Positions 2 through 63,258 of a stretch of DNA of 64,000 nucleotides are shown here, in pieces (position 1 is the first letter of the stretch; every line of letters begins with the position of its first letter). Origin of the DNA: Candidatus Latescibacterota bacterium (lineage in GTDB: Bacteria; Krumholzibacteriota; Krumholzibacteriia; JACNKJ01); the NCBI GenBank assembly GCA_020633725.1, contig JACKDC010000004.1:261085-325084 (forward strand), given 5' to 3'. The notes beneath the pieces are model-generated. The model saw only the letters and a list, made by a program, of their open reading frames with translations. It was not told the origin of the DNA and did no database searches. A program made the position numbers and the translations under genes.

Positions 2-1669
2 TACACGCCCACCCTGCGCGTGGTGGACGCCCAGGGCCGCGAGGCGCGCCGCGCGCTGGAGGGCGGCGTGGAGATCGTCTTCGATGGCCCGCTCTGGACC
101 GTGGACGCCGCGGCCGGCGCCCCCGACGGCGACGGCAGCCCCGCGCGCCCCTTCGCCGACATCCAGCAGGCCATCAACGCCGCGGCGCCGGGCGACACGG
201 TGCGCGTGCTGCCGGGCGTCTACCGCGGCGCGATGAACACGGCCCTCGACAACGCCGGCAAGGCGCTGCTGCTGCTGGCCGCCGGCGAGCCGGGCGACGT
301 GCGCATCGACGGCGAGGGCGAGCATCGCCTGCTCCGACTCGACGCCGCCGGCACGCCGGTGGGCAGCGCGTCGCCGCTCGTACGCCTCGAGGGCTTCACG
401 CTGGAGCGCGGCGCCGATCCGCTGCGAGGCGGGGGCATCCTCGCCGAGGGCGTGAGCCTCGAACTCGTCGACTGCACTGTCGAGAACTGCCAGACGCTCA
501 AGGACGTCGGCGCCGGCGGCGCGATCTGGTGCGACCGCGATCTGCGCCTCGAGCGGTGCAGCTTCCTCGAGAACCGCAGCGGCGGCGACGGCGGCGCGAT
601 TTTCGCCGCCGGCGGCAGCGTGCAGCTCGACGGCTGCCGCTTCGACGCCAACGCCGCGGGCGCCGAGGGCGGCGCGCTCTGGCAGGGCGGCGGCGTGCTG
701 GCCGCGGCGCGCAGCGCCTTCGTGGACAACGCGGCGCTCCTGCGCGGCGGCGCGCTGGGTCTGCTCGGCGTGAACGCGGGCCTCGACGCCCTGCGCTTCA
801 CCGGCAACGTGGTCACGGCCCCCGCCGGCGACCTCCGCGGCGGCGGCGCGGTGGCCTGGGAGGCGCCCGGCGCCGACCTGCTCGTCACCAACTGCCTCTT
901 CACGGGCAACGAAGCCCCGGAGGGCGGCGCGCTGCGCGCCGACGGCGGACGCCTCAGCGGCGCACAGCTCACCTTCTGGGGCAACCGCGCCCTGCGCCGC
1001 GGCGGCGCCCTGGCGCTCATGGGGACGGGCGAGGCCGACCCCGTGATCGCGAACAGCATCCTCTGGGGCGACGCGGCGCCCGAGGGGTCGGAGTTCGCGG
1101 CGCCCGGCGGCGCGGAGTTCCGTCACTGCGTGCTGGCCGGCGGCGCCGGCGGCAAGCTCGTAATCGACCTCGACCCGCGCTTCCGCGACCCCGACGGCGG
1201 CGACTTCTCCCTCGACGACGACAGCCCCTGCCTCGGCGCTGGCGCCCGCGAGGGCGTGCCCGCCCTCGACCTCGACGGCGAACCCCGCCCGCAGCCCGCC
1301 GGCAGCCTGCCCGACCTGGGCGCGCTCGAGTCGCCGCTCACGGGGTCCACCGCCGCGCCCGAGACCGCGCCGAGCGGCCTCGTCTTCGGCGGCGCCTATC
1401 CCAACCCCTTCAATCCGCGCACGACCTTCAGCTTCTCGCTGCCCGCGCCCGGCGACGTGACGCTCCAGGTCTTCCAGTCCTCCGGCCGCCAGGTGGCCGA
1501 GGTGCTGGAGCCGCAGCCCCTGGCCGCCGGCGACCACAGCGTGCCCTGGGTCGCGCGCGACGAGGCCGGCCAGCCCCTGGCCAGCGGGATCTACCTCGCG
1601 CGGCTCTCGGTGCACTACGCCGACGGCGGCGAGGACCGCGCGATGCAGAAGGTGCTGCTGGTCAAATAG
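2..1669 (+). CDS. secreted right-handed beta-helix repeat protein with T9SS-type C-terminal sorting domain; 5' end probably lies outside the window
   Basis: Frame open to window edge (track M at 20 may be internal); repetitive Gly/Ala-rich beta-helix-like segments; C-terminus YPNPFNPRTTFSFSLP...GIYLARL...KVLLVK matches CTD of 7 other proteins in window. Confidence 0.6.
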   Translation, partial: YTPTLRVVDAQGREARRALEGGVEIVFDGPLWTVDAAAGAPDGDGSPARPFADIQQAINAAAPGDTVRVLPGVYRGAMNTALDNAGKALLLLAAGEPGDVRIDGEGEHRLLRLDAAGTPVGSASPLVRLEGFTLERGADPLRGGGILAEGVSLELVDCTVENCQTLKDVGAGGAIWCDRDLRLERCSFLENRSGGDGGAIFAAGGSVQLDGCRFDANAAGAEGGALWQGGGVLAAARSAFVDNAALLRGGALGLLGVNAGLDALRFTGNVVTAPAGDLRGGGAVAWEAPGADLLVTNCLFTGNEAPEGGALRADGGRLSGAQLTFWGNRALRRGGALALMGTGEADPVIANSILWGDAAPEGSEFAAPGGAEFRHCVLAGGAGGKLVIDLDPRFRDPDGGDFSLDDDSPCLGAGAREGVPALDLDGEPRPQPAGSLPDLGALESPLTGSTAAPETAPSGLVFGGAYPNPFNPRTTFSFSLPAPGDVTLQVFQSSGRQVAEVLEPQPLAAGDHSVPWVARDEAGQPLASGIYLARLSVHYADGGEDRAMQKVLLVK

Positions 1670-1677
1670 CCGCGCTC

Positions 1678-1732
1678 GCGAGTGCTTTGCCTCGCTTCGC
1701 ACGGACGTGAGGCGCTCGGCCAAAGCACTCGC
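1678..1732 (+). terminator. long stem-loop (14-bp stem 1678-1691/1719-1732) downstream of first CDS; no T-tract
   Basis: Inverted repeat gcgagtgctttgcc ... ggcaaagcactcgc read directly from sequence. Confidence 0.3.
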
Positions 1733-1773
1733 TCGCTGGCGTGGCACTCAAACTTGACTCGCCTGTCCTGAAA

Positions 1774-1791
1774 CCCGCCCCCGGGGGCGGG
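1774..1791. repeat. REP-like perfect palindrome CCCGCCCCCGGGGGCGGG (copy 1 of 7)
   Basis: Exact 18-nt self-complementary sequence; intergenic. Confidence 0.6.
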
Positions 1792-1830
1792 AGGCTGGGG
1801 CGCGCCGTGCGATTCCGTGCACTTGCCCCC

Positions 1831-1859
1831 TTGCCCCGCGAAGAAGAATACTATACATT
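1831..1859 (+). promoter_or_regulatory. sigma70-like promoter TTGCCC-N17-TACATT, part of duplicated conserved element (copy 1)
   Basis: AT-rich hexamer in 70% GC background; near-identical block atactatacatt and downstream leader conserved with copy at 18739-18790. Confidence 0.45.
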
Positions 1860-1950
1860 GGTATCCATGACAAGGGGTGGGATGCAGTTTCTTTCGAAGT
1901 CGGACGGAAGTTGCGACGGGACTGGCGGCCCTGCACGCGGGAGCTCTCCA

Positions 1951-1968
1951 CCCGCCCCCGGGGGCGGG
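1951..1968. repeat. REP-like palindrome CCCGCCCCCGGGGGCGGG (copy 2)
   Basis: Exact match; lies in leader between element promoter and CDS 1990. Confidence 0.6.
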
Positions 1969-1989
1969 TGGCCATGCTACAATTGGAGA

Positions 1990-3189: not shown

Positions 3190-3220
3190 TCCGCCGCCCG
3201 TGGCGCGCGAGCCGACGCAA

Positions 3221-3238: not shown

Positions 3239-3252
3239 TGCGGCTCTACCCG

Positions 3253-9301: not shown

Positions 9302-9302
9302 C

Positions 9303-18896: not shown

Positions 18897-21539
18897 CTAG
18901 AGCGACGCGAAGCTGCCCTGGGGGATCCAGCCCTCGAGCTCGTCGCCGAGGTGGACGCGGACCCAGTTGCCGCGGGTCTCGTCGATGCGCAGTTCCGCGC
19001 CGGCGTGGATCTCGAAGAGTGTGAGGAAGTCCGTGCCGGGTCCGCTGGTCACGGACACCGTGGGCGAGAGGAGCACGGCCTCGCGGCCGCTCCAGTCGGT
19101 CCACTCCACGGCCCAGGCGGCGACGGACACCAGCGGCAGCAGCACGGCCAGTGCGATCAGCACGACGCGCAGCCGTCGCCAGGCGACGATCCGCAGCAGG
19201 CCCAGCAGCAGCAGCGCCGTGCCCAGCCAGAGCAGCACGAGCCCCAGCGCGGCGAGCTCGCCCGGCGAAACGTGCTGGCGCAACCAGCGCCACGCGCCGC
19301 TCCAGGCGCCGCCGCCGGTGCTGCGCGTGTCGCCGTCGGGTCGGCGAGAGCGCGCGAGGGCGAGGTTGTCGCGGACTTCGCTGTCGCGTGGGGCGAGGCG
19401 CTGCGCGCGACGGTAGTCGAGGATCGCGCGGCCCAGGTCGCCCTGCTGGTAGTAGGCGTTGCCGAGGTTGTACCAGAGATGGCTGTCCTCCACGCCTTCC
19501 CGCGCGAGGGACTCCCAGATGCCCGCCGCGGCCTGGAAGTCGCCGGCCTCGTAGCGCGCGGCGGCGTCGGCCATGCGCTGCAGCGTGTCGTCGGCGGCGT
19601 GGGCGGGCCGAGGCGCCAGCGCCAGCGCGAGCAGGAGGAGCGGCAGCAGGCCGCCCAGCAGGCCGGCGCCCTTGCGCGCCGGGCGCGTCTCGCGGTCGAG
19701 ACGCGGCAGCAGCGCGCGGGCCTGCTCGAGCAGCGTCGCCATGCGCGCGCCGCTGTGCTCGGCTGCGCCCGGAGCGTAGCGCGCGAAGTCGCAGGCGTCG
19801 AGCAGTCGGCGCGTCTCGGTGCAGGCCTCGTCGGAGGCGCCCGCGCGGCGCAGCGCGCCCTCGGCGACGTCCCCGGTCAGGCCCGCCGCCGACAGCTTCA
19901 GCCGGTCGGCCAGGTAGCCGCGCAGGCCGCTGGCCAGCTCGGCGCAGAAGCCGCCGAAGTCGCCCGCGGCGTGAGCCTTCTCCGCGGCGCGGAGACGTTC
20001 CTCGGCGCTCTTGCGCGCGCCGCGCGCACGGAAGCCCGCCGCGTCGGAGAGCTGCGCGTCGCGGCGGCGACGCCAGAACCAGGTGCCCGCCAGCAGCGGC
20101 CAGGGCAGCGCCAGCGCGGTCCAGAAGCCGGCCGAGCGGGGGAAGCGGGCGCCGTCGCCGGCGAGCGGCGGGTCGGTCTTGATGTGGTGGATGTCCCTGC
20201 CCAGCAGCTCCACGCGGTCGGGCGTGAGGTCGCTGAAGACCACGGGTTCGCTGGCCTCCGTCTTGCCCGGCGCCACCTGCAGCGTGACGCCCTTCGTCTC
20301 CACGCTGCGATAGCGGCGCTGATCGGGGTCGAACCAGGAGTAGCTCACGCCGGGCAGCGAGAGCTCGCCCTCGCGGCGCGGCACCACGACGCGGGTGTAG
20401 CGCTTCTGGACCTGGATGGCGTCGCCGTCCACCTGCGTGTCGCTCTGCAGCTCGGCGTCGTAGGCCTTGAAGTCGACGCCGGGATCGTAGTCCGGCTCGG
20501 CGAAGGCGCGCGGATTGCCGAAGCCGCTGAGCGTGAGCGTCACCGTGATCGGCTGGCCGACGGCGTAGGGGCCGGGGTCCGTCTTCAGGGACACGCTGAA
20601 CTGCTGCGCCACGGTGCCCTTGAAGCCGGCGGGGCGGCCCGCGTCGGGCAGGGGCAGCACCGTCACCGGCACGGGCGGCGTGCGCAGCACCTTCTCGGGG
20701 CCGGCGTCGAAGGCGAAGAACTCGAAGCGGCTGCGGTCGCGCAGGCGCAGCTGGATCTGCGCGGGGCCGATCTCCAGCTGGCCCGGCTCGCTGGGGAAGA
20801 GCGCCGCGCGCAGCTCGGTGGCGGCGTAGTTGACGCCGTCCACCTGGCGGTAGCCGCTGATCTCGTCGCCGAGGGGTTCGGACCAGAAGCCGGTGAAGTC
20901 GGGGGCGCCGTACTGCGGCTGGCCGATGAAGCTCACGGTCGGCCGGCGATAGAGCGCGAAGTGATGCGTGAGCTGCTGGCCCACGTAGACGGAATCCGCG
21001 TCCACCCAGGAGCGGATGAAGACGTCGCGGTTGCCCGCCGTGGCGCTCTCCTGCTGCACTGGCGGCGCGCTCGGCTGGCCGGCCGGCGGCACGCCCGCCT
21101 GCGGGGCGCCGGAGGTCGCGGGGCGCACGTTGACGCGCATCGCGCGCGTCTCGTAGATCTGCCCCTTCACGCGCACGGGGACGGCCGGAATCGTGAGCTC
21201 GCCGCTGCGCAGCGGCACCAGCGTGTAGCGGTAGGTCTTGCTGCTGCTCGCCTGGCCGTTGACCCAGGAGAAGTTACTGGAGCTGGAGCTGCCCACGAGG
21301 CCGAAGTCGTCGAGTTCGGGCAGCTCGGGCGCATCGCTGCCGCGCATCGCGCCGGAGACGACGATGGTATAGTTGAAGGACTCGCCCTCGCGGATGATGC
21401 CGCCGTCCAGGGTGGCCTCCACCTGGACGTCGTCGGCGAGGGCGCGCACGGGCCAGGCGCCTGCCACGGCGGTGGCGAACAGGACGGCGAGGCAGAGCGC
21501 CGGCGCCCTCCGCGTGATCCGCTCCAGCGTCGACATCAC
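18897..21539 (-). CDS. batD: BatD-like protein continuous with BatE-like TPR + SH3b region (apparent BatD-BatE fusion, ~880 aa)
   Basis: ATG overlaps batC stop (ATGA); N-terminal signal MSTLERITRRAPALCLAVLFATAVA, large periplasmic domain, TM FWTALALPWPLLAGTWFWRRRR; same frame continues without stop into TPR segment and C-terminal SH3b-like domain (…WVRVHLGDELEGWIPQGSF). Confidence 0.65.
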   Translation of the reverse strand: MMSTLERITRRAPALCLAVLFATAVAGAWPVRALADDVQVEATLDGGIIREGESFNYTIVVSGAMRGSDAPELPELDDFGLVGSSSSSNFSWVNGQASSSKTYRYTLVPLRSGELTIPAVPVRVKGQIYETRAMRVNVRPATSGAPQAGVPPAGQPSAPPVQQESATAGNRDVFIRSWVDADSVYVGQQLTHHFALYRRPTVSFIGQPQYGAPDFTGFWSEPLGDEISGYRQVDGVNYAATELRAALFPSEPGQLEIGPAQIQLRLRDRSRFEFFAFDAGPEKVLRTPPVPVTVLPLPDAGRPAGFKGTVAQQFSVSLKTDPGPYAVGQPITVTLTLSGFGNPRAFAEPDYDPGVDFKAYDAELQSDTQVDGDAIQVQKRYTRVVVPRREGELSLPGVSYSWFDPDQRRYRSVETKGVTLQVAPGKTEASEPVVFSDLTPDRVELLGRDIHHIKTDPPLAGDGARFPRSAGFWTALALPWPLLAGTWFWRRRRDAQLSDAAGFRARGARKSAEERLRAAEKAHAAGDFGGFCAELASGLRGYLADRLKLSAAGLTGDVAEGALRRAGASDEACTETRRLLDACDFARYAPGAAEHSGARMATLLEQARALLPRLDRETRPARKGAGLLGGLLPLLLLALALAPRPAHAADDTLQRMADAAARYEAGDFQAAAGIWESLAREGVEDSHLWYNLGNAYYQQGDLGRAILDYRRAQRLAPRDSEVRDNLALARSRRPDGDTRSTGGGAWSGAWRWLRQHVSPGELAALGLVLLWLGTALLLLGLLRIVAWRRLRVVLIALAVLLPLVSVAAWAVEWTDWSGREAVLLSPTVSVTSGPGTDFLTLFEIHAGAELRIDETRGNWVRVHLGDELEGWIPQGSFASL

Positions 21540-22327
21540 CAGTCCTTCTCCACGTCCGGGTTGCGCGGCTTCAGTTCCTTGCTGCGCTCGGCCTGCAGCT
21601 CCTTCTCCTCCTCGAGCATGGCGTCGAGGAGGCGCTGGGCGTCCTCGGGGCTCATCTGCTCGGTGTCGTCGGGCGCGGCCTGTTCGAGCTGATCCTGCTG
21701 CTGCTGCTCCTGCTCCTGCGGCTGCTGTTGATCCTGGGGCTGATCCTGCGAGTCGGGCTGCGGCTGCTGATCCTGCTGGCTCTGATCCTGCTGCTGCTGC
21801 TGATCCTGATCCTGGTCGCCCTCGCTCTGGTCCGGTTTCTCGCTCTGTTGCTGCTGCTCCTGCTGCTGCTCCTGCATCTGCTTGAGGACGATCTCGTAGT
21901 TGTGCCGCAGCTCCATGTCCTCGGGGTCGAGCAGCATGCCGGCCATGTAGGTCTGCAGCGCGGGCTCGAGCTGTCCCGAGGTCGCCAGCGCGTTGCCCAG
22001 ATCGTAGAGCGCGCCGGCGCGCGCCTGGGGCGTCTCGGCGAAGCGCACGGCCTGGCTGTAGGCGGCGAGGCCTTCCTCCATCTGGTTCGAGCGGGCGAGC
22101 GCCCCGGCGAGATTCTGCTGGAGGACCGGGTTCTCGGGCCGCTTCAGGGCCTCCTCGCGGTAGATCTTCGCCGCCTCGCCGTAGTCGCCCTTCTCCACCA
22201 GGGCGTTGCCCTTGGCGTTGGCGCGCACGGTGGCCAGCGGCGCCTTGGGGACGGCGGCGTCCTCGGCGTGGACCGCGCTCGCCCCCGCGAGCGCGAGCGC
22301 AGCCGCGACTAGAAGCGGCCGGACCAT
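21536..22327 (-). CDS. batC: BatC-like TPR protein with Gln/Glu/Asp-rich low-complexity tail
   Basis: Signal peptide, TPR-like helices, long QQQEQQ.. tail; position between batB and batD. Confidence 0.65.
   Translation of the reverse strand: MVRPLLVAAALALAGASAVHAEDAAVPKAPLATVRANAKGNALVEKGDYGEAAKIYREEALKRPENPVLQQNLAGALARSNQMEEGLAAYSQAVRFAETPQARAGALYDLGNALATSGQLEPALQTYMAGMLLDPEDMELRHNYEIVLKQMQEQQQEQQQQSEKPDQSEGDQDQDQQQQQDQSQQDQQPQPDSQDQPQDQQQPQEQEQQQQDQLEQAAPDDTEQMSPEDAQRLLDAMLEEEKELQAERSKELKPRNPDVEKDW
21655..21895 (-). repeat. CAG/CAA/GAG-rich low-complexity coding repeat (poly-Q/E/D tail of BatC)
   Basis: ctgctgctgctcctg... tracts on plus strand. Confidence 0.6.
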
Positions 22328-23361
22328 GTCTCGTCCTCCTTGCGGCGCTCGGACAGCGCGAAGTCCAGGCCCAGCGCGGCCAGGGCCAGGGCCACCACGA
22401 TCGGGTAGCGCTCGATGGGCTTGCGCGCCTGGCGGCCGGTGAGCTCGCGCGTCTCCATGCCGGAGATCGTCTCCTTGAGATGGTCGAGCTGCAGATCGCC
22501 GCCGCCGGACTCATAGTAAGCGCCGCCGGTCGCGGCGGCCACCTTCTGCAGCGTGGTGCGCGCGAGGCGCGTGAAGACGGGCTTCCCCGCACGGTCGCGC
22601 AGGTTCTCCTTGAGCACGCCGGTGTCCGGGTCGCGCAGCGGCACCGTGAAGCCCTCGGGCGTGCCGACGCCGATCGTGAAGATCACGACGCCCTCGTCTG
22701 CCGCCTCCTTGGCCGCCGCGAGCGCGTCGCCCTCGTGGCTCTCGCCATCGGTGACCAGGATCAGCACCTTGAAGCGCTTCTCGCGCGTGCCGAAGGCGGC
22801 CAGCGCGCGGCGGATGGCCTTGTCCAGGTTCGTGCCCGGCACCGGGACGCTGTTGACGGTGATGCCGTCGAGAAAGATCGAGGCCGCCGAGGCGTCCAGG
22901 GTCAGCGGGCAGCTGGTGATGCTCTCGCCGGCGAAGGTCACCAACCCCAGCCGGTTGCCGCGCAGAAGGCGGAAGAGGTCCTCCACCTCGCGCTTGGCCG
23001 CCTCGAGCCGGTTGGGCTTGAGGTCCTCGGCCAGCATGCTCTGGCTGGTGTCGAGGGCGACGATGACGTCCAGCCCGCGCCGCTTGACCTCCTGCAGCGT
23101 GGAGCCGATCTGCGGCCGCGGCAGCGCGAGGAGCACGAGCCCGAAGCCCAGGGCGAAGAGGAACACCTTCCAGCGCAGCCGCGCCGGATCGAAGCCGGGC
23201 ACGAGTCGCGCCAGCAGGCCGGCGTCCGCCAGGCGCCGCCGCGCCTTTGCCCGCGCGCGCCCGGCGACCCAGAGCAGCAGGGCCGCCACGGGCAACAGCC
23301 AGAGCAGCGCCAGCAGGCGCGGTTCACCGAAGCTCAGGGCGAGCAGGGGCAGCCGGGTCAT
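22309..23361 (-). CDS. batB: VWA domain protein BatB
   Basis: Start re-placed at ATG 23361 (MTRLPLLALSFGEPRLLALLWLL); MIDAS motif DVIVALDTSQSM, VTDGESH; two N-terminal TMs. Confidence 0.85.
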   Translation of the reverse strand: MTRLPLLALSFGEPRLLALLWLLPVAALLLWVAGRARAKARRRLADAGLLARLVPGFDPARLRWKVFLFALGFGLVLLALPRPQIGSTLQEVKRRGLDVIVALDTSQSMLAEDLKPNRLEAAKREVEDLFRLLRGNRLGLVTFAGESITSCPLTLDASAASIFLDGITVNSVPVPGTNLDKAIRRALAAFGTREKRFKVLILVTDGESHEGDALAAAKEAADEGVVIFTIGVGTPEGFTVPLRDPDTGVLKENLRDRAGKPVFTRLARTTLQKVAAATGGAYYESGGGDLQLDHLKETISGMETRELTGRQARKPIERYPIVVALALAALGLDFALSERRKEDETWSGRF

Positions 23362-24353
23362 GGCGCCCCCCGCAGGACGAAGCGCGCGATCAGCATCTCC
23401 AGCAAGAGCAGCAGCGCGGCCGGCAGGAGGAAGGGCAAGCTGGCCTCGTGGTAGTCCACGCGCTCGATGCTGCTCACCTCGGTGCGCTCGAGCTGGTCGA
23501 TCTCGTCGTAGATGCGCGCCAGCGACTCGGTGCTCTGGGCGCGGAAGTAGCGCCCCTTGGTGAGCGAGGCGATCTCGCGGAGGGTCTTCTCGTCGAGGTT
23601 GCTGGTCACGTACTGGTAGCGCTTGCCGAAGAGCATGTCGTTGACGGGATAGGGCACCTGCCCGTCCTTGCCCACGCCGATGGTGTAGATCTTGATGCCC
23701 ATCGCCGCCGCCGCCCGCGCGGCGGTCACCGGGTCGACGCTGCCCGCGTTGTTGTCGCCGTCGGTGAGCAGGACGATCACCTTGCTCTTGGCCTCGGTCT
23801 CCCGCAGGCGGTTGGTGGCCGTGGCGATGGCGCTGCCGATGGCGGTGCCGTCCTCCACCACGCCCATCTTCACCTGGACGAGGAACTGGTCGAGCAGAGC
23901 GTGATCCAGGGTCAGCGGACACTGGGTGAAGGCCTGGCCCGCGAAGACCACCAGGCCGATGCGGTCGTTCTCGCGTTTCGCGATGAACTCCGCCGCCTGC
24001 GCCTTCGCCTCCTCGAGCCGGTTGCGCGGGCGGAAGTCCTCGCCCTTCATCGAGGTGGAGACGTCCAGCGTCAGCACGATGTCCACGCCCTCGCTGGTGA
24101 CCTCGCGCGTGTGCGTGCCGGACTGGGGCCGCGCCAGCGCCAGCACCAGCAGCACCAGCGCGGCCACGCGCAGCACCGGCGGCAGAAAGCGCAGGTGGAC
24201 CCGACCGCGCCCGGCCTGCCGACGGTGAAGTCCGGCGTCGGACACCGTGAAGACGAGATTCTGCCGGCCCCGCTGCCGCCAGCGCCACAGCACGAGCAGC
24301 GCGGGGATGACGAGCGCGGTCAGCGCCCAGGGGTAGACGAAGCGCTCGATCAT
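23358..24353 (-). CDS. batA: VWA domain protein BatA
   Basis: Start at ATG 24353 (MIERFVYPWALTALVIPALLVLW); MIDAS DIVLTLDVSTSM, LLTDGDNN; C-terminal TM. Confidence 0.85.
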   Translation of the reverse strand: MIERFVYPWALTALVIPALLVLWRWRQRGRQNLVFTVSDAGLHRRQAGRGRVHLRFLPPVLRVAALVLLVLALARPQSGTHTREVTSEGVDIVLTLDVSTSMKGEDFRPRNRLEEAKAQAAEFIAKRENDRIGLVVFAGQAFTQCPLTLDHALLDQFLVQVKMGVVEDGTAIGSAIATATNRLRETEAKSKVIVLLTDGDNNAGSVDPVTAARAAAAMGIKIYTIGVGKDGQVPYPVNDMLFGKRYQYVTSNLDEKTLREIASLTKGRYFRAQSTESLARIYDEIDQLERTEVSSIERVDYHEASLPFLLPAALLLLLEMLIARFVLRGAP

Positions 24354-26509
24354 GCCGGCGCCTCCGCGGGGCGGGGGGCGGCGGGGTCGTCGCCGGGCGC
24401 GTGCTCGGCCGCGGGCGGCCGCGTCGCCATGACCAGTCGCTTGGCCGCCTGCATCGAGGCCTGGCACTCCGCGCGCGTGGGCTCGCGGCGCGCGAACTTC
24501 ACCAGGTCGCCGCGCTCGAGGTCGTCCATCAGCGGCTCCACGAGGGTGGGGTCCAGCTGCAGGCGCCGGGGCGCGAAGGGCGAGCCCTCGAGGGCGTCGC
24601 GGATCTCGTCGGTGGTCCAGTCGGCGAAGGGCAGCGCGTAGTGGCGGGTGAGATAGCGGCGCACGATCTGCGAGAGCTGGAAGTAGTACTCGGCCCAGGC
24701 GCCCTGCCCCGGGAGGTCGGCCTGCGCCAGCGCGTCGAGGGCGGCGAGGGCCTCCACGTCGGCGGGCGTCGGCGGGACTTCCGGCGCGAGGCGGCGCGCG
24801 CGACGCCGCAGCCACCACCACAGCGAGAGTGCGGCGGCCAGCAACAGCAGCAGCCCGGGCAGTCCCCAGCGCGCGAGCACGGGTGCCCAGTCGGCGCGCA
24901 GTGCGCCGGGCGCCTTCCAGTCGTGGAGCGCGCTGCTGTCGGGGCCCGCCGCGAGGGAGCTCACGCAGGCGAGCTCCAGCGGGTGCGTGACGAGCGCGCG
25001 CGGGGCGTCGTCGCCGGCGAGCCGGTAGCGGAAGGTCTGGCCGGGGATCTCGAAGGTGTCGGGGACGGTCACCGTGAAGGGCAGCTGGTAGACGAGCGTG
25101 TCGGCCCCGGCGCCGCGCAGCGTGTCCGCCTGCACGAAGTCGTGCAGGGCGAGGCGCTCGCCGGCGGCCTGCCGGGCGGCCAGCGCCTCGGCCTGGTCGA
25201 CGTCGCCGGTGCGGGGCAGCGGCAGGATCCGTCCCGGCGCGCCGAGGTCGAAGGCTAGGCTGTCGAGCGCGGCGCCCTCGGGGAGCACGACGCGCCAGCG
25301 CAGCGCGTTGGGCTGCCCGATCGCCTGCAGGTCGCGCTCGAGGCGGGTGTCGATGCGGAGGCCGTCCGCGTCCACCTGATCGAGACGCGGACGCCCCGCC
25401 CCGGTGAGCTGCGCCAGCGAGGGCAGCGCGAGGGAGTCGAGCGCCGCGCGCGGAATGATCGTGAAGGACGGCGCCTGCGCTTGCCCCGCCGGCCCCGGCT
25501 GTCCCTGCGGCATCGGCGGCGCCTGCTGGATCTGCGCGCGGGTCGGGCTCGTGCCCGCGGCCAGGGACGCCGCCAGCAGGGCCGGCAGCAGCCAGCCGCG
25601 CGCGCGGCCGATGCCCTTGGCGAGACGTTTCGCGCGCTTGCGGAAGAACTGCACCAGCGGGCGGGCGCAGTCCTCGGCGGGGTCGAGGCGGATTTCGTCC
25701 ACGCCGTTCTTGCCGCAGAGCTGGCTGAAGCGCGCGTCGCGCGCGGCGGCCTCCTCGGCGAAGTGCTTGCGCACCCAGCGATTGCTCGTGTCGAGCCAGA
25801 CGCGCTCGCCGCTCTCGGCGTCGCGGACCTGGAGCAGGCCCACGTCGGGCAGCTCGCCCTCCAGACGGTCGCGGATGTTCAGCGCCACCAGGTCGTGGCG
25901 GCGCGCCGCCAGGCGCAGGGGCGTCTCGAAGTCGGGGGCCATGAAGTCGCTCACCAGGAAGACCACGGCCTTGCGCTTGAGCAGGCGGCGCACGGTTTCC
26001 AGCGCGCCGCCGAGGTCGGTGCCGCTGCCCTCGGGCTTCACGTAGAGCAGCTCGCGGATGATGCGCAGGACGTGGCGGTGGCCCTTCTCCGGCGGGATGT
26101 ACTGCTCCACGCGATCGGTGAAGATCAGGCAGCCCACCTTGTCCTGGTTGCGGATGGCGCTGAAGGCCAGCACGCTGGCCACCTCGGCGATGACCTCGCT
26201 CTTGAGGCGCTCGCGGCTGCCGAAGAGGCCGCTGGCGCTGGCGTCCACTACCAGCAGCACGGTGAGTTCTCGCTCTTCGCGATAGCGCTTGATGAAGGGC
26301 CGGCCCATGCGCGCGGTGACGTTCCAGTCGATCGAGCGCACCTCGTCGCCCGCGGCGTACTCGCGGACCTCGTCGAACTCCATGCCGGTGCCCTTGAAGA
26401 CCGAGTGGTACGCGCCGCCGAAGAGGTCGTCCACCCGGTGGCGGGTGGCCAGCTCGATCTTCCGGACCTTGCGCAGGATCTCGGGGGGTATGCGCTCTTG
26501 CTCGGCCAT
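24350..26509 (-). CDS. DUF58 family protein whose frame continues without stop through a signal/TM + periplasmic region and a DUF4381-like TM segment (719-codon ORF; possible fusion or unresolved internal non-ATG starts)
   Basis: ATG 26509 (MAEQERIPPEILRKV) 5 nt after moxR stop; DUF58-like GDEVRSIDWNVTAR...LLVVDASASG; then WLLPALLAASLAAGTSPTRA and later LLLLAAALSLWWWLRRRARR + C-terminal helical domain; ATGA overlap with batA. Confidence 0.6.
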   Translation of the reverse strand: MAEQERIPPEILRKVRKIELATRHRVDDLFGGAYHSVFKGTGMEFDEVREYAAGDEVRSIDWNVTARMGRPFIKRYREERELTVLLVVDASASGLFGSRERLKSEVIAEVASVLAFSAIRNQDKVGCLIFTDRVEQYIPPEKGHRHVLRIIRELLYVKPEGSGTDLGGALETVRRLLKRKAVVFLVSDFMAPDFETPLRLAARRHDLVALNIRDRLEGELPDVGLLQVRDAESGERVWLDTSNRWVRKHFAEEAAARDARFSQLCGKNGVDEIRLDPAEDCARPLVQFFRKRAKRLAKGIGRARGWLLPALLAASLAAGTSPTRAQIQQAPPMPQGQPGPAGQAQAPSFTIIPRAALDSLALPSLAQLTGAGRPRLDQVDADGLRIDTRLERDLQAIGQPNALRWRVVLPEGAALDSLAFDLGAPGRILPLPRTGDVDQAEALAARQAAGERLALHDFVQADTLRGAGADTLVYQLPFTVTVPDTFEIPGQTFRYRLAGDDAPRALVTHPLELACVSSLAAGPDSSALHDWKAPGALRADWAPVLARWGLPGLLLLLAAALSLWWWLRRRARRLAPEVPPTPADVEALAALDALAQADLPGQGAWAEYYFQLSQIVRRYLTRHYALPFADWTTDEIRDALEGSPFAPRRLQLDPTLVEPLMDDLERGDLVKFARREPTRAECQASMQAAKRLVMATRPPAAEHAPGDDPAAPRPAEAPA

Positions 26510-26514
26510 GGAGC

Positions 26515-27498
26515 CTAGGGAACCTCGACTGTGTCGAAGATGCGGCGGATGACGGCGTCGCTGTCCAGCTCCTCCGCCTCGGCCTCGTAGCTGACGATGA
26601 TGCGGTGGCGGAGCACGTCCAGGCCCACCTTCTTCACGTCCTCGGGCGTGACGTAGCCGCGTCCGCGCAGGAAGGCGTGCGCGCGGCTCGCCGCGGCGAG
26701 GAAGAGCGTGGCGCGCGGGCTCGCGCCGTAGCTGATCAGCGGCTTGAGCGCGCGCGACGGCTCGCGCGTGGCGAAGACGAGCTCGATGATGTAGTCCTTC
26801 ACCTTCTCGTCCATGAAGATCTCGCTGACGAGCTTGCGCGCCTCGAAGATGCGCGACAGTTCGATCACGGGCGTGACGCGGGGCTGCTCCATCCCGCCCA
26901 TGCGCGCCAGGATCTCCTTCTCCTCGCCGCGGTTCGGGTAGTCCACCTTGACCTTGAGCATGAAGCGGTCGACCTGCGCCTCGGGCAGGGGGTAGGTGCC
27001 CTCCTGCTCGATGGGGTTCTGGGTGGCCAGCACGAGGAAGGGCTCCGGCAGCGGGTGGCTCTCCGCCCCCAGCGTGACCTGCCGCTCCTGCATCGCCTCG
27101 AGCAGCGCGCTCTGAACCTTGGCGGGGGCGCGGTTGATCTCGTCGGCCAGGATCAGGTTGGCGAAGATGGGCCCCTTGCGCGTGCTGAAGTCCCCGCTGC
27201 GGGGGTCGTAGATCTGGGTGCCGAGCAGGTCCGCGGGAAGGAGATCGGGCGTGAACTGGAGCCGCCGGAACTGGGCGCGGATGGCGCCGGCGAGACTGCT
27301 CACGGCCAGGGTCTTGGCCAGGCCGGGCAGGCCCTCGAGCAGGACGTGCCCGTTGCAGAGCAGGCCGATGAGCAGACGCTCCACGAGGTAGCGCTGGCCG
27401 ACGATCACCTTGCCCAGCTCGTCGCCGATCTCCCTGAGGAAGCGGCTTTCCCGCTCGACCCGTTCGTTCAGCACGTCGATGTCGTAGTTGCTCTCCAT
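26515..27498 (-). CDS. moxR: MoxR-family AAA+ ATPase
   Basis: Walker A GLPGLAKT, Walker B ILADEINRAP, ATQNP sensor motif; first gene of bat operon. Confidence 0.9.
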   Translation of the reverse strand: MESNYDIDVLNERVERESRFLREIGDELGKVIVGQRYLVERLLIGLLCNGHVLLEGLPGLAKTLAVSSLAGAIRAQFRRLQFTPDLLPADLLGTQIYDPRSGDFSTRKGPIFANLILADEINRAPAKVQSALLEAMQERQVTLGAESHPLPEPFLVLATQNPIEQEGTYPLPEAQVDRFMLKVKVDYPNRGEEKEILARMGGMEQPRVTPVIELSRIFEARKLVSEIFMDEKVKDYIIELVFATREPSRALKPLISYGASPRATLFLAAASRAHAFLRGRGYVTPEDVKKVGLDVLRHRIIVSYEAEAEELDSDAVIRRIFDTVEVP

Positions 27499-42950: not shown

Positions 42951-43688
42951 TCAGTACAGCGACTTTACTGCAGAGAAGCTCGTGGGCTCTACGACGACGA
43001 TCCCGTCGCTCTCGATCTCCATCCCGAGGAGAATCTCGCCCATCCCGTAGTCGCTGAAGTAGATGCCTAGCGTATAGAGGTCGCGGTCCCCCGGAGGCTC
43101 GGGGGCAGGGGCGGTGTCTCGGCCAAACCATGTGTTTAGTATGGCAGACAGGTGCACATGGTCCGAGGATTGGTCTCGCCAAAGCATGGGATGGTGGCCG
43201 TCGGCACCTCCACCGGCGAGGGGCCGGATGAACACCCCGAAGGTCTCCTCCTCGTTCGAACCACCCAGCGCGAACCAGTGAAATACATCAAGCTCCTCCC
43301 AGCAGTAGTTGCAAGTGGTCGTATACTCGTTGAGTCGCTGAAAGGAAAAGCCCTCTGATCCGTCGCTGTAGCGAATCCGGTAGATCAGATGTACCTCATA
43401 GGGGATGCCAGACTCGGCGTAGTCGCCGCCATGGTAGAACCAGATCCGCTGAACGATGAAACCCTCGTCAAAGGTGTCGTCCGGCCAGGTCATGAAGTTC
43501 CCCACCACTGTAGTGCTGGTTGGCCCCCAGATCGGCGAGTAAGGGACGCCATCGTGGATGTCAATCGACAGAAAACCGCGTTCTGTCGGCGCGGCCGTGG
43601 CGCTGGAAGGAACTCCTAGGCCAAGGGCAGCAAGCATGGCCGAAAGCAAGATGGCGTAGCTAAAACTGAACGATCTGCAGATTCGCAT
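42951..43688 (-). CDS. hypothetical secreted protein (lower-GC island)
   Basis: ATG 43688 with GGAGG RBS; signal peptide MRICRSFSFSYAILLSAMLAALGLGVPSSATA; no family recognised. Confidence 0.45.
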   Translation of the reverse strand: MRICRSFSFSYAILLSAMLAALGLGVPSSATAAPTERGFLSIDIHDGVPYSPIWGPTSTTVVGNFMTWPDDTFDEGFIVQRIWFYHGGDYAESGIPYEVHLIYRIRYSDGSEGFSFQRLNEYTTTCNYCWEELDVFHWFALGGSNEEETFGVFIRPLAGGGADGHHPMLWRDQSSDHVHLSAILNTWFGRDTAPAPEPPGDRDLYTLGIYFSDYGMGEILLGMEIESDGIVVVEPTSFSAVKSLY

Positions 43689-44163
43689 TAGGGGCCTCCA
43701 CATCGACCGTGAGGACAACCGATTCCTCCTGTGGCGCAAGCCGAAGAAGCAGGCTGTCCCCAGGACACGGCAAGGAATCCAGCATCGCCAAAGGGCTCAA
43801 GTCGAATAGAATCTCTCGGTGTTCGCCGTCCTCCTTGGCGGGGAACAGGTCGAGGAGCTGGAGCATGGACACTTCGTCATCTCCGCTACGGCAAAGGACC
43901 TCAAGGCCGAGAAGGACATCGTCGTCACTCAGAGAAACCGGAGTGACGAGTAACCATTCTAGCACGATCTGCCGACCAGTCGCCACGATGCCTGCGCCGC
44001 CTACGACAGTCACGAACCCCCCGCTGCTGGCGTCCGCAGCAAAGGCAAGGGCCGTCTCCTCGATCTCGAGTGCTCTGCAGTGTGAGGAGTGAATGGAAGC
44101 TGTGGCAACGGCGACCACAAGAACGACCTTGCCCAACCTCAAGCTTCTGGGATTACTTGACAT
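43660..44163 (-). CDS. hypothetical secreted protein (lower-GC island)
   Basis: ATG 44163; signal-like MSSNPRSLRLGKVVLVVAVATASIHS; overlaps neighbours by 11 and 29 nt. Confidence 0.4.
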   Translation of the reverse strand: MSSNPRSLRLGKVVLVVAVATASIHSSHCRALEIEETALAFAADASSGGFVTVVGGAGIVATGRQIVLEWLLVTPVSLSDDDVLLGLEVLCRSGDDEVSMLQLLDLFPAKEDGEHREILFDLSPLAMLDSLPCPGDSLLLRLAPQEESVVLTVDVEAPNANLQIVQF

Positions 44164-51544: not shown

Positions 51545-52207
51545 CTACTCCAACCCCGTGAACCAGCGGTTCCAGCGCGGCAGGTAGTGGCGCTCGGGAT
51601 CGAGCGATCCCACCACGGCCTTCACCTGGCCCATGATCGCGTCGCGCTCCACGACGCCGAAGACGCGCGAGTCGGCGCTGTTGTCGCGGTTGTCGCCCAT
51701 CACGAAGTAGTGGCCCTCGGGCACCCGCACGGGGCCGAACTCGCGCAGGAAGGGCCGACGGTCGTCGCGCCGCACGGTGTGCGGATGGCCGGGCAGGTCC
51801 TCGCGCCAGAAGCTCCCCTCGATCGGGCTGTACTCCACCGCCGCGCCGTTGATGGACAGATGCCCGTCGCGCTGCTGCAGCAGGTCGCCCGGCAGCCCGA
51901 TGACGCGCTTCACCAGCCGCGTGCCGTCGGTGGGCGACTGCAGGATCACGATGTCCCCGCGCGCCGGCTCCGCCCAGCGGGCCAGGCGCACGCGCGTGAA
52001 GGGCACCTTGAGGTCGTAGGCCAGGCGGTTCACGGCGATGCGCTCGCCTTCGAGGATGGTGGGGCGCATGGAGCCGCTGGGGACGTCGTTCCAGTCGGCC
52101 ACGGCCGAGCGCACCGAGCCCAGGATCGCGGCCATGACGAGGAAGGTCAGCACCCACTCGCGCCCGGCGCGAAGCCAGCGGACGCGGCGGGAGGGCGTGC
52201 TGTTCAT
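51545..52207 (-). CDS. lepB: signal peptidase I
   Basis: SGSMRPTIL (catalytic Ser), KRVIGLPGD (Lys box), GDNRDNSADSR. Confidence 0.85.
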   Translation of the reverse strand: MNSTPSRRVRWLRAGREWVLTFLVMAAILGSVRSAVADWNDVPSGSMRPTILEGERIAVNRLAYDLKVPFTRVRLARWAEPARGDIVILQSPTDGTRLVKRVIGLPGDLLQQRDGHLSINGAAVEYSPIEGSFWREDLPGHPHTVRRDDRRPFLREFGPVRVPEGHYFVMGDNRDNSADSRVFGVVERDAIMGQVKAVVGSLDPERHYLPRWNRWFTGLE

Positions 52208-60113: not shown

Positions 60114-60177
60114 GGCTTCCTCCGGGTGGGGGACGACCGGAGGCAAGCATGTCGGCGGGCGCTTGCCAAGGGGACGT

Positions 60178-60231: not shown

Positions 60232-63200
60232 ATGAGAACTGGCGCCGCGTTCTGCTGCCTGACCCTGGCTCTGGTGAGTCGCGCGCTTTCCGTGAACGCC
60301 ACCGTTCTGCGGGTCCCCGAGGATTTCACCTCGATCCAGTCAGCCATCACGGCCGCAACGGATGGGGACACGATCTCGGTCGCGCCCGGCAACTACAACC
60401 AGGTGAGCTTCTCGTTCGGCGGCCGGCAGATCGTCGTCAGAGGACGTTACGGCGGCGTCTGGCGTCCGATCCTCGATGGCCAGGACAGTCTGGGCAACGC
60501 GGTGTACTTCGGGTCGGGCGAAGGCCCGGCGGCTGTGCTCGAGAACTTCGTCATCCGCCGCTATCGCGCCTGGGATGCGAGCGCGGTGAGGTGCAGCGGA
60601 ACTTCGCCCACCCTCCGCGGCCTGCTGATCGAGGATTGCGGGGCCGATCCCATCGGCGACATCGTTTCCGGTGGCGGGGCGATCCGGTGCACGGACGGTG
60701 CCTCCCCTCGGCTGGAGGACTCGGTCATCCAGCGCTGCGAACAGGTATTCGGCGGCGCTGTCTACCTCGAGGATGACTCCTCGTTCACCTGTGTCGGCAC
60801 CACCTTCGAGGACTGCCGCGCGGAGCATGGAGGGGCCATCTGTGGCTACCTCCCGGACTACGTCAGCGCTCAGGTCACGCTACAGGGTTGCAGTTTCCAT
60901 CTGTGCAGGGCGATCGGCAGCGTGGACTTCCACAACAACTGGTACGGCGGCAACGGTGGGGCCCTCTACACCTATGCGGTGACCACGGTCAGCGGATGCA
61001 CTTTCGACACGTGCGGGGCGGCTTTCGACCCGGCTCAATCGGGAGCCGGCCGGGGAGGGGCCCTCTATCTCCTCGGCGAGAGCAGTGGGGTCGCCGACTG
61101 CGAGTTCAGGGGCTGTAGCGGCCGTTCCGGCGCCGCCATCTACGGTTGGTCTGTCGCATCCATCGAACGTGTCTCGATAGACGGTGGTTCGAACGTGAAC
61201 GGAGCGATCCATCTCGCGTCGGGCAGCTGCGCCATCGAGACCACGATCGTGTCCGACTGCGATGGCGAGGGGATCCATCTCGCGGGCGGGACAGTCACGG
61301 TCGCCTGCTCCGACGTCTTCGGCAACCTCGATGGCAACTACGCTGGCTTGTTGGAAGACCAGACGGGCATCAATGGCAACCTCAGCGAGGACCCGCTCTT
61401 CTGCACCGACGTGTTCAACCCAGATCAGCCCCTCGGCCTGGATGATGACTCGCCATGCGCTGCGGCCAACAACGGCTGCGGCGTGACCATCGGCCGGCAC
61501 GACGTGGGCTGCGACATCCTCTGGTTGCAGGTCTCCGGCCGTGTCGTCGACTTCTTCGGCGCGCCGGTTGAACTCGTCGAGCTCCTGGGCGCCTACGAGC
61601 CGGCGCAAACCGCCGCGGACGGAACCTACAGCTTCTCGGCGCCAGTTCATTGGTCGGGCACTGTCACTCCGATGCGCGAGGACCTTGGGTTCACACCCGC
61701 GTCGCGCACATACAACAATCTCGGCGACGATCACGCCGATCAGGACTACCAGGCCTACGATCACTTCACGATCAGCGGCGCCGTGTCATCCGCCACCGGC
61801 GTACCGCTCGCCAATGTTTCGCTCCTCGGTGGCCCCGAAGACTGCCTGACGGCAGTCGACGGCAGCTACTCCCTCGTGGTGGACCAAGGCTGGAGCGGCA
61901 CGCTCACGCCGGAGCGTGAGGGCCTCGCCTTCGATCCGCCGTCGCGAGACTACGTCGATGCACAGGTCGACTTTCTCGGGCAGGACTATCTCGGCACCGG
62001 CCGTGGCGTGTTGCATGTTCCCGGGGACTACCTCACGCTGGCGGCCGCGTTCGCGGCCTACGCACCCGGCGATACGATCCTGGTGGCGCCCGGCACCTAT
62101 GCCGGTCCGGGCTTCCGCAACCTCGAGTGGGGTGACCTCGACCTCGTGTTGATCTCCGAGGCCGGCGCGGCCCAGACGATCATCGACCTCGAGAACGACG
62201 GCCGCTTTGTGCGTATGGTTGACGCAGGTGACGACGAGACTCTGCGCGGCTTCACCCTCCGCAACGGCCGAGTCAACGGCGCGTACCCTGGCAATGGCCG
62301 CGGCGGCGCACTCTGCATGATCGACTCGTCCCCACGCTTGCAGGATCTGGTACTCGAGTCCTGCCGTTCCCTCAGCGCCGAGGGTGGTGCGATCTTCGGA
62401 GGAGGATCGAGCTTCACGCTCGAGGACGCCTGGCTCGAGAACAACGAAACTCTTGCGGGCGCAGGGGGGGCCATCTGCTGTCTCCAGTCCAGCGCGCCCA
62501 CGCTACGCCGCGTCGTGTGCGTCGGCAACGTGTCCGCGGATGCCGGCGGCGCTTTGGCCTTTGCTGACGGCGCGGTTGCCCTCCTGGAACAGGTGACCCT
62601 CCACCAGAACAGGGCCGAGGGAGCTGGCGGTGCCCTCCATGCCGGCAGCGGCAGCCTCGTGCAACTCGACGGCGTGCTGGCGACGCTGAACGTCGCGAGC
62701 GGGGGGGCTGGCGGGATCCACGCCGAGGATGCGGTGAGTCTGCCGGGGGTCTCGTGCAGCAACGTGTTCGGCAACACGCCGGGCAACTACGGCGGCGAGC
62801 TGGCGGACCAGACCGGGCTGAACGGCAACATCAGCGCCTGGCCGGCCTACTGCGACCTCGCTCTGCCCGACCTGCACCTCCTCGGAGAGTCCCCCTGCCT
62901 GCCCGGGAACAACAGCTGCGGCGTGCTCATGGGGGCACTCGGCAGCTGCGAGCCCACCGATGCTGCGCCCGCGACGTCTGCGGCGCTCACCTTGCAGGCA
63001 CATCCCAATCCCTTCAATCCCGCGACCACGCTGCGCCTGAATCTGCCCGCGGCAGGCAGCGTCACCCTGCGCGTGCTGGACGTGGCGGGGCGCCGCGTGG
63101 TCTCGATCCTCGACGGGGTGTCGCTCCCGGCCGGCGAGACGCGGCTGCAATGGCAGGCGGAGAACGACCACGGCCACGCCCTGCCCAGCGGTGTCTACTT

Positions 63201-63258
63201 CGCGGACTTGCAGGTCGCTGGAGAAAGCCGCAAGCTGAAGCTGCTGCTGCTGAAGTAG
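60232..63258 (+). CDS. secreted protein with two right-handed beta-helix modules, two CarboxypepD_reg-like domains and T9SS-type CTD
   Basis: ATG 60232; signal MRTGAAFCCLTLALVSRALS; each module ends in NGN(L/I)S..P.(F/Y)C...SPC..NN(G/S)CGV; C-terminus HPNPFNPATTLRLNLP...SGVYFADL...KLLLLK. Confidence 0.75.
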   Translation: MRTGAAFCCLTLALVSRALSVNATVLRVPEDFTSIQSAITAATDGDTISVAPGNYNQVSFSFGGRQIVVRGRYGGVWRPILDGQDSLGNAVYFGSGEGPAAVLENFVIRRYRAWDASAVRCSGTSPTLRGLLIEDCGADPIGDIVSGGGAIRCTDGASPRLEDSVIQRCEQVFGGAVYLEDDSSFTCVGTTFEDCRAEHGGAICGYLPDYVSAQVTLQGCSFHLCRAIGSVDFHNNWYGGNGGALYTYAVTTVSGCTFDTCGAAFDPAQSGAGRGGALYLLGESSGVADCEFRGCSGRSGAAIYGWSVASIERVSIDGGSNVNGAIHLASGSCAIETTIVSDCDGEGIHLAGGTVTVACSDVFGNLDGNYAGLLEDQTGINGNLSEDPLFCTDVFNPDQPLGLDDDSPCAAANNGCGVTIGRHDVGCDILWLQVSGRVVDFFGAPVELVELLGAYEPAQTAADGTYSFSAPVHWSGTVTPMREDLGFTPASRTYNNLGDDHADQDYQAYDHFTISGAVSSATGVPLANVSLLGGPEDCLTAVDGSYSLVVDQGWSGTLTPEREGLAFDPPSRDYVDAQVDFLGQDYLGTGRGVLHVPGDYLTLAAAFAAYAPGDTILVAPGTYAGPGFRNLEWGDLDLVLISEAGAAQTIIDLENDGRFVRMVDAGDDETLRGFTLRNGRVNGAYPGNGRGGALCMIDSSPRLQDLVLESCRSLSAEGGAIFGGGSSFTLEDAWLENNETLAGAGGAICCLQSSAPTLRRVVCVGNVSADAGGALAFADGAVALLEQVTLHQNRAEGAGGALHAGSGSLVQLDGVLATLNVASGGAGGIHAEDAVSLPGVSCSNVFGNTPGNYGGELADQTGLNGNISAWPAYCDLALPDLHLLGESPCLPGNNSCGVLMGALGSCEPTDAAPATSAALTLQAHPNPFNPATTLRLNLPAAGSVTLRVLDVAGRRVVSILDGVSLPAGETRLQWQAENDHGHALPSGVYFADLQVAGESRKLKLLLLK

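Follow-up and report, generated by a model that had tools for sequence, protein, structure and literature searches.

Probable type IX-like sorting domains at the C-termini of eight exported proteins encoded in a 64-kb region of a Krumholzibacteriota genome

Proteins that end in a shared C-terminal domain were characterized in a stretch of 64,000 nucleotides (hereafter, the window) from the metagenome-assembled genome (MAG) of a Candidatus Latescibacterota bacterium (assembly GCA_020633725.1, contig JACKDC010000004.1, positions 261,085 to 325,084 of the forward strand). The domain was detected in 8 of the 51 genes called in the window (16%), which together account for 27% of its bases. These eight proteins are probably the cargo of a secretion and surface-attachment pathway that resembles the type IX (Por) secretion system (T9SS), the shared tail being a type A-like C-terminal domain (CTD) of a subtype similar to the immunoglobulin (Ig)-like domain of FlgD. 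The T9SS is usually described as a system of the Bacteroidota (Abby, 2016; PMC9143113). Our finding adds a lineage to a known system, and public annotation recognizes it already: the NCBI pipeline names two of the carriers "T9SS type A sorting domain-containing protein" (50288-51520 and 32297-34588, the latter also "FlgD immunoglobulin-like domain containing protein"). It changes no concept and is ordinary for this bacterial group.

A hidden Markov model (HMM) of the domain was built from window sequences only, with three tails found by a regular expression as the seed and iteration over all six-frame open reading frames (ORFs). This model replaced a strict regular expression of the motif given in an initial annotation of the same DNA, which caught just three of the eight tails. 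The HMM detected a domain of about 85-90 amino acids in exactly eight ORFs of the window (i-Evalues 1e-27 to 3e-39), and no ninth ORF scored in the six-frame search, even at E<5. Each carrier has one copy of the domain, which terminates at the stop codon in all eight. The motif in the initial annotation matches the consensus of our eight-tail alignment and its count of eight tails was confirmed by the HMM, but the accompanying list named nine proteins. The tail is present on just two of the three listed beta-helix proteins; the remaining one (1990-3189) ends in a different, short C-terminal motif that is described below.

The passengers of the eight tails represent seven mutually unrelated folds and include beta-helix, FG-GAP, LVIVD, BNR, glucose/sorbosone dehydrogenase (GSDH) and HExxH proteins (Table 1). 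Sec signal peptides with an n-h-c layout and an AxA-type cleavage site were present in all seven carriers with an intact N-terminus, as judged by a manual hydrophobicity scan and not by a dedicated predictor; the eighth carrier is cut by the window edge. That truncated protein (2-1669) matched the Pfam families Beta_helix, Chlam_PMP and FlgD_ig (28.6 bits) and the NCBIfam family choice_anch_Q. The FG-GAP protein scored 48.4 bits against FlgD_ig and 33.8 bits against TIGR04183, and related strains also have a 655-amino-acid gene call at this position. The two LVIVD proteins are tandem, distant paralogues (29% identity). The 1131-amino-acid carrier (TIGR04183, 28.2 bits) contains only one HExxH, and no Pfam, NCBIfam or PDB relative was found for its N-terminal 1,040 amino acids; it is a putative metalloprotease. 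The BNR protein has the most divergent of the eight tails (TIGR04183, 30.7 bits). Calling genes from the GC content of third codon positions (GC3) alone was too crude, and a codon-model dynamic-programming caller was used instead. The high GC content of the window (69.6%) fills mechanical ORF lists with spurious long frames, and the 896-amino-acid ORF at 57460-60150 was over-extended; the true GSDH gene, at 57460-58908, encodes 482 amino acids and is called at that length in a sister MAG too.

Table 1. Tail-bearing proteins and other features of the window, with the PorV/PorQ-family locus of related assemblies. Coordinates of the carriers include stop codons.
Feature	Position	Strand	Remarks
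Beta-helix/PMP-repeat protein	2..1669	+	Tail about 1403-1666; 5' end truncated by window edge
FG-GAP repeat protein, 655 aa	13050..15017	+	Tail 14751-15014; signal peptide MKLGPAILTLLLATSVATAEA|Q
LVIVD beta-propeller protein b, 763 aa	32297..34588	-	Signal peptide; tail 32300-32563
LVIVD beta-propeller protein a, 756 aa	34615..36885	-	Signal peptide; tail 34618-34881
HExxH protein, 1131 aa	44153..47548	-	HEWQH at residue 202; signal peptide; tail 44156-44419
BNR/Asp-box Ycf48-like propeller, 410 aa	50288..51520	+	Signal peptide; tail 51254-51517
Glucose/sorbosone dehydrogenase (GSDH/PQQ-type), 482 aa	57460..58908	-	Signal peptidase I (SPI)-type signal peptide; tail 57463-57726
Beta-helix + CarboxypepD_reg protein, 1008 aa	60232..63258	+	Signal peptide; tail 62992-63255
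Tail-less GSDH paralogue, 378 aa	58977..60113	-	Lipoprotein signal, LAAAC lipobox
"Third beta-helix protein", 399 aa	1990..3189	+	Signal peptide; ends in second motif ...ATESRNWSSIKALY
Small secreted protein, no assigned function	42951..43703	-	Ends in second motif ...VEPTSFSAVKSLY
bat-type operon	18897..27498	-	MoxR AAA, DUF58, BatA, BatB, TPR protein, BatD-TPR-SH3
Signal peptidase I (Peptidase_S26)	51545..52207	-	Enzyme class expected to cleave cargo signal peptides
P0147 barrel locus	GCA_020633715.1 contig 5 JACKDD010000005.1, L092 7557-11428; GCA_041390085.1 contig 4, L085		

The tail domain lies between the FlgD-Ig and T9SS CTD families. The consensus of the eight tails is "PNPFNPxT...IxDVxGRxVRxL...WDGRDxxGxPLxSGVYFARL...KLVLLK", with P12, P14, G40, R41, G54, G73 and Y75 invariant in the alignment and a pairwise identity of 13-51% (mean 35%). 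Three curated models had been put forward in the initial annotation, and two of them matched tails. PF13860 (FlgD_ig) reached its gathering score of 27 bits in six of the eight tails and TIGR04183 (T9SS type A) its cutoff of 23 bits in four; three other tails scored 18.8-21.8 bits with TIGR04183 and one gave no match. All eight tails pass one curated threshold because the four TIGR04183 matches include both tails missed by PF13860. The third model, PF18962, stayed below threshold and is considered with the contrary evidence. An AlphaFold model computed from the eight-sequence alignment had high confidence (predicted local distance difference test [pLDDT] score, 93.8) and formed an Ig-like sandwich of seven strands. 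Its best Foldseek match in the PDB was the CTD of Porphyromonas gingivalis PorU (template modeling [TM] score, 0.70), followed by FlgD Ig domains, the PorZ CTD (TM 0.65) and the mirolase CTD. The intermediate position of the domain follows from the order of the sequence-profile matches to the PDB, which places PorU (4.9e-5), RgpB (8e-3) and PorZ (1.6e-2) after FlgD Ig. With all tails over a PF13860 or TIGR04183 cutoff and a fold nearest to the PorU CTD, the initial description of an FlgD-Ig/Por-sorting-like domain proved sound.

The T9SS CTD has been defined as a 3+4 seven-stranded sandwich, 67-88 amino acids long for cleaved CTDs, with two functionally validated motifs: a beta3-beta4 loop with a conserved glycine (F-D-M-N-G-R-R in RgpB) and a C-terminal strand with a conserved lysine (PMC11285876). 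The tails agree with this description in strand count, in their length of about 85 amino acids and in their D-x-x-G-R and K-L-V-L-L-K motifs. The D-x-x-G-R motif, with its invariant G40 and R41, aligns with the RgpB loop, and K-L-V-L-L-[KR], which contains the beta7 lysine, closes most of the tails; the most divergent tail has R-R-F-V-V-L-H. The eight proteins thus resemble T9SS type A cargo such as RgpB, PPAD and mirolase in having a terminal domain of this size and fold, Sec export, diverse passengers, a glycine that opens beta4, a lysine in the last strand and, in half of them, a TIGR04183 score above cutoff. They differ from Bacteroidota cargo in their host, a member of the Krumholzibacteriota, in their sub-threshold PF18962 scores and in a strong "PNPFNP" start and "WDGRD..G..L.SGVYF" core, because of which the tails score better on PF13860.

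A Sec signal peptide is expected on such cargo since periplasmic export comes first. The signal peptide would carry each protein over the inner membrane and would be cut by signal peptidase I, often leaving an N-terminal glutamine that may be cyclized. Passenger and CTD would fold in the periplasm, where an outer-membrane translocon and a PorV-family shuttle would recognize the CTD through the glycine of the beta3-beta4 loop and the lysine-containing C-terminal strand. A PorU-type sortase would then remove the CTD, and the passenger would be released or attached to the cell surface. We infer a translocon with its motor and a PorU in this genome, as well as cleavage of the CTD and the final location of the cargo. 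Sorting is supported by the location of the tail at the extreme C-terminus, both in the eight window proteins and in 170 of 178 related ORFs.

Those related ORFs came from a wider survey of the tail. In a 5.8-billion-protein collection, a profile search in which 8,000 candidates were scored detected at least 6,657 tail homologues at E<=1e-5. Homologues with taxonomic names were from Krumholzibacteria, Latescibacteria, Calditrichaeota and Bacteroidetes, whereas in JGI the name "flagellar hook assembly protein FlgD" is attached to many homologues. A genomic scan with one genome per species yielded 79 loci. About a third of these had labels of phyla in the superphylum Fibrobacteres-Chlorobi-Bacteroidetes, or FCB (Krumholzibacteriota, Latescibacterota, Gemmatimonadota, Zixibacteria, KSB1, Eisenbacteria, Neomarinimicrobiota, Cloacimonadota, Caldithrix, Fibrobacteraceae and Bacteroidota), about half were unlabelled and one was assigned to the Alphaproteobacteria. 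The labels bear out the earlier view that the tail is typical of Bacteroidota and FCB candidate phyla. The exceptional locus (L052, CAYUIF010000001.1, "uncultured Alphaproteobacteria bacterium") has five tail ORFs in 20 kb and is probably a taxonomic mislabel rather than a non-FCB occurrence. Together with three loci of the species studied here, the sample comprised 1.27 Mb and contained the 178 tail ORFs, 170 of which end within 3 amino acids of the stop codon; these counts are ORF-based because the codon-model caller sometimes took the antisense strand on foreign loci. In one Candidatus Krumholzibacteriia MAG (CAXXKE01; L012, 10296-17333), six paralogues of 386-391 amino acids, all with signal peptides, are encoded head to tail in a tandem array that is adjoined by a tail gene.

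The density of tails in the window, which the initial annotation called unusually high, depends on the reference used. Genome-wide frequencies in Bacteroidota genomes are 1-4%, and the window is far above this range. The binomial probability of finding at least 8 carriers among 51 genes is 4e-8 at a frequency of 1%, 9e-4 at 4% and 0.08 at 9%, the last being the approximate frequency in the flanks of the related loci, which is inflated by ascertainment and clustering. The density is thus high against the genome-wide frequency (p<1e-3) and not against related loci (p=0.08). The spacing of tails tells the same story: the window has one per 8 kb and the related loci have about one per 7 kb (about 13 kb without index hits). 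Elsewhere in this species, tail genes numbered 3-4 within 14.6 kb and 3 within 21 kb.

A barrel protein of the PorV/PorQ family is encoded in assemblies of the same species. The search proceeded from a beta-barrel shortlist drawn from the 79 loci to a local profile and then to a homologue in same-species assemblies. One MAG each of Caldithrix and Bacteroidota had proteins over the family cutoff, a KSB1 MAG had a weaker match, and the local profile detected a family gene that adjoins a tail gene in the 3.6-Mb MAG CAVOFT01. A homologue with 73% identity to the CAVOFT01 barrel, P0147, is named "PorV/PorQ family protein [Ca. Krumholzibacteriia]". P0147 scored 118 bits against NF033709 (cutoff, 90), which places it within the broader PorV/PorQ family, and the sole PDB sequence match of its barrel was Flavobacterium johnsoniae PorV. 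In a model of moderate confidence (pLDDT 65), the barrel fold was best matched by PorV chains in the solved structure of the T9SS translocon (TM 0.55-0.57), compared with a TM of 0.34 for TodX. The initial annotation had considered that its interpretation would fail if the genome lacked T9SS components; this objection does not arise because a PorV/PorQ-family gene is present in GCA_020633715.1 and GCA_041390085.1.

The genomic context links PorV-like barrels to tails. The P0147 gene starts 8 bp downstream of a gene for a tail-bearing protein of 811 amino acids, and further tail genes flank the pair. The 811-amino-acid protein has thrombospondin-type/CglD-like repeats and a C-terminus with weak similarity to the CTDs of PorZ and PorU. 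Together, the two proteins look like a lineage-specific cargo-barrel module. In the KSB1 MAG, a PorU-type sortase with the same type of tail (NF033707, 325 bits, E 9e-97) is encoded directly upstream of the PorV-like gene, and an unclassified bacterial MAG encodes a C25+FlgD_ig protein that is followed by a PorV-like gene. These arrangements recall the PorU-PorV and PorZ-PorQ pairs of P. gingivalis, from which the pair described here differs in the features of its barrel, discussed below, and in the 811-amino-acid protein, which is without PorZ propellers. A shared gene order was observed in the Caldithrix MAG (L044, 11378-20251) and the Bacteroidota MAG (L063, 644-10564), consisting of a gene for an outer-membrane protein of about 850-890 amino acids, one for a protein of 700-1060 amino acids, the PorV-family barrel and two genes for proteins of about 420-540 amino acids. 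This run, which is preceded by four upstream genes for tail proteins in L044, may be an uncharacterized PorV-associated module.

Searches for the remaining machinery were negative within the DNA covered. No T9SS machinery was detected among window genes of at least 100 amino acids scanned with Pfam and/or NCBIfam, consistent with the earlier statement that porK/L/M/N, sov and porU/V are missing from the window. A PDB search with 4,840 amino acids of concatenated, unannotated proteins of the same species gave no T9SS component, and an operon-signature search found no gldKLMN-like runs. Screens of the 1.27 Mb of related DNA for GldM/GldL motifs and for the sulfatase-fold motif of formylglycine-generating enzyme (FGE) in GldK/PorK gave no credible match; these are weak negatives. 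An exhaustive PorU profile returned 42,413 matches and was rejected as having drifted, as the best 150 were mostly without the tail and included Chloroflexota-type C25 proteins. A batch scan of 95 envelope proteins via an alignment container matched 551 families, with singletons hidden, and was uninformative.

Several observations weigh against a T9SS-type pathway. PF18962 was below its gathering score (27 bits) in all eight tails, the best being the BNR protein at 26.4 bits, and the tail sequence is nearer to the flagellar FlgD Ig domain (E 1.7e-9) than to the P. gingivalis CTDs. P0147 falls under both the PorV and the PorQ equivalog cutoffs (41.7 bits against 250 for NF033710), and this 475-amino-acid protein is fused to a C-terminal OmpA-like peptidoglycan-binding domain. 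SprA/Sov, PorK/L/M/N and PorU were not found in the window or in about 46 kb of other DNA of the same species, an absence that says little either way because about 110 kb of a genome of about 4 Mb (a size taken by analogy with a related MAG) was visible. A word-index search with the KSB1 PorU core for a PorU of the Krumholzibacteriia gave 45 matches, none of them from this lineage. TXSScan placed the T9SS only in Bacteroidetes (Abby, 2016). The T9SS has, nevertheless, been considered possible outside the Bacteroidota within the FCB superphylum, with T9SS-like genes possible in Chlorobiota, Ignavibacteriota, Rhodothermota and Gemmatimonadetes as well as in Cloacimonadota and Fibrobacterota (PMC11285876). 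The present case shares with these phyla the superphylum and the kind of evidence, namely genomic components and CTD-type cargo, and differs in that the Krumholzibacteriota are missing from that list. In the library searched, we found no paper linking Krumholzibacteriota or Latescibacteria with the T9SS and nothing useful on the T9SS across sister phyla; a cited Cloacimonadota paper names the T9SS in its reference list only.

The tail could also serve a reduced or alternative system, in which the CTD docks on dedicated PorV/PorQ-like, OmpA-fused barrels to anchor the protein at the surface and translocation relies on machinery other than SprA or PorKLMN. We regard this as unlikely. In its favor, the sole machinery-type gene seen for the species is the PorV/Q-OmpA fusion, which fails both equivalog cutoffs and has about 20 full-length relatives in the collection of 5.8 billion proteins. 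Moreover, a PorV-like gene is directly downstream of a tail-bearing gene in four of five loci, similar to the type-B CTD/PorP pairing (PMC9143113), and the related DNA contained no GldL/M or GldK-type motif. However, the motif screens are weak negatives and little of each genome was sampled. Other MAGs have PorU-type sortases that carry the same tail and adjoin PorV-like genes, which follows canonical attachment-complex logic, and the CTD retains the motifs thought to touch the translocon.

It is more doubtful still, and in our estimation improbable, that the tail is a structural, adhesive or carbohydrate-binding FlgD-like Ig module with no role in sorting, on proteins that are periplasmic or exported by a route like the type II secretion system. 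The likeness to flagellar FlgD Ig is real: FlgD Ig domains are the best sequence-profile matches in the PDB, PF13860 outscores PF18962 and reaches its gathering score in most tails, the "WDG.d..G..l..G.Y" core is shared, and JGI gives many homologues the FlgD name. Unlike FlgD, however, the tails are terminal, single-copy and found on enzymes, propellers and beta-helices, and they have an N-terminal PNPF and a C-terminal K-x-x-L-L-K, both typical of T9SS CTDs. The tail proteins scored 16-35 bits against the FlgD equivalog models (cutoffs, 230-383), the FlgD N-terminal region is absent from all eight and no flagellar genes were found among the window genes. A general Ig module would be internal or repeated, whereas this one is single and at the stop codon in nearly all of the related ORFs. 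The terminal position, the retention of the T9SS-specific C-terminal lysine motif and beta3-beta4 glycine, and the linkage to PorU and PorV (the tail also occurs on a PorU-type sortase and clusters with PorV-family genes) therefore disfavor a purely structural role. Chance or compositional similarity at high GC, or an artefact of over-long ORFs of the kind seen at 57460-60150, is excluded by the HMM i-Evalues, the matches to independent curated models, more than 6,600 homologues, a confident fold prediction, and the coding GC3 bias and recognized N-terminal domains or signal peptides of all eight genes.

A member of an uncultured, high-GC phylum here spends about a quarter of 64 kb on CTD-tagged proteins. 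CTD cargo together with a PorV/PorQ-family barrel suggests a protein-rich and probably adhesive or degradative cell surface. For annotation, a C-terminal PF13860 match on non-flagellar proteins of FCB MAGs is better named a sorting domain than "FlgD".

The lineage of the window is consistent with this interpretation. The HisRS, MoxR, LVIVD and BNR proteins of the window are identical in the MAGs GCA_020633715.1 and a sister with a 329-kb contig, labelled Candidatus Latescibacterota, and GCA_041390085.1 (336-kb contig), labelled Candidatus Krumholzibacteriia, a class that NCBI taxonomy places directly beneath Bacteria. The initial annotation had deduced a high-GC FCB lineage from the letters of the DNA, and it was right, because the Krumholzibacteriota belong to the FCB superphylum and have MAGs of 69-71% GC and about 4.2 Mb (PMC10936416). 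Part of that deduction was drawn from a Bacteroides-type bat operon. The operon is present (Table 1); to our knowledge, bat operons are not diagnostic of FCB.

A second C-terminal motif was detected on proteins without the tail. The motif, (V)(A)(T)-E-x-[ST]-[STN]-W-[SG]-x-[LIV]-K-[AS]-L-[YF]-(R)-stop, stands at the end of 29 of the 7,331 ORFs of the window and related loci, where fewer than one would be expected by naive chance. Two of the 29 are in the window (Table 1), one being the beta-helix protein mistaken for a tail carrier; the others are in loci L003, L006, L007, L015, L020, L021, L023-L025, L033, L036, L038, L043, L045, L046, L062, L069 and L079. Sec signal peptides were found on 26 of the 29 ORFs, positions left free by the regular expression are also conserved, and the passengers are unrelated (beta-helix, ResA-like oxidoreductase, propeller and unassigned proteins). 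The motif is outside the reach of all Pfam and NCBIfam models and has no transmembrane segment. The possibility that the motif precedes a read-through FlgD_ig tail was rejected, as no tail lies within 600 nucleotides downstream. The motif may serve as a so far uncatalogued tag for sorting or anchoring, which, if true, would be a new surface-protein targeting class in uncultured FCB phyla. More tentatively, and with considerable doubt on our part, these FCB lineages could run at least two parallel sorting codes, one based on the FlgD-Ig CTD and lineage-specific PorV/Q-OmpA barrels encoded beside CTD proteins and the other on the second tag of small, Sec-exported proteins. On this reading, the FlgD-Ig CTD has spread to some 5-15% of the genes at the loci sampled.

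Several features of individual cargo genes were also observed. The tandem GSDH copies are 51% identical, and one has the tail and an SPI-type signal whereas the other has a lipobox and no tail (58977-60113); one kind of enzyme is thus apparently targeted to two different compartments. Three tail genes have a GC3 below the 0.93-0.96 of most neighbors, namely the HExxH gene (GC3 0.75; GC 60%), the BNR gene (0.77) and the beta-helix gene at 60232-63258 (0.83), and some cargo genes may therefore have been acquired recently. Of the seven cargo signal peptides that could be read, four have an AxA|Q cleavage context (13050-15017, 34615-36885, 32297-34588 and 50288-51520), and a glutaminyl cyclase (PF05096) is encoded on another contig of the same species (L003, 10107-10907). 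The combination suggests pyroglutamate N-termini on the predicted mature proteins, comparable to the "Bacteroidetes Q-rule", outside the Bacteroidota. The beta-helix gene at 60232-63258 is represented by two ORFs (486 and 128 amino acids) in GCA_041390085.1 (L002, 7384-10387), which reflects a frameshift, a difference between assemblies or decay to a pseudogene.

The integrity of the window was considered at two positions. A contig junction was suspected near 50.2 kb, where the contig of one assembly stops, and was rejected: the sequence is continuous, and sister assemblies have the same genes on contigs of 329-336 kb. Strains with 99.5% identity (metagenome contigs L094-L096) are syntenic with the window up to a break exactly at position 3252. 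Positions 1-3251, which hold both beta-helix genes of that end, are replaced in those strains by an amino-acid-kinase gene; the window varies between strains at this end or possibly contains a join made in assembly.

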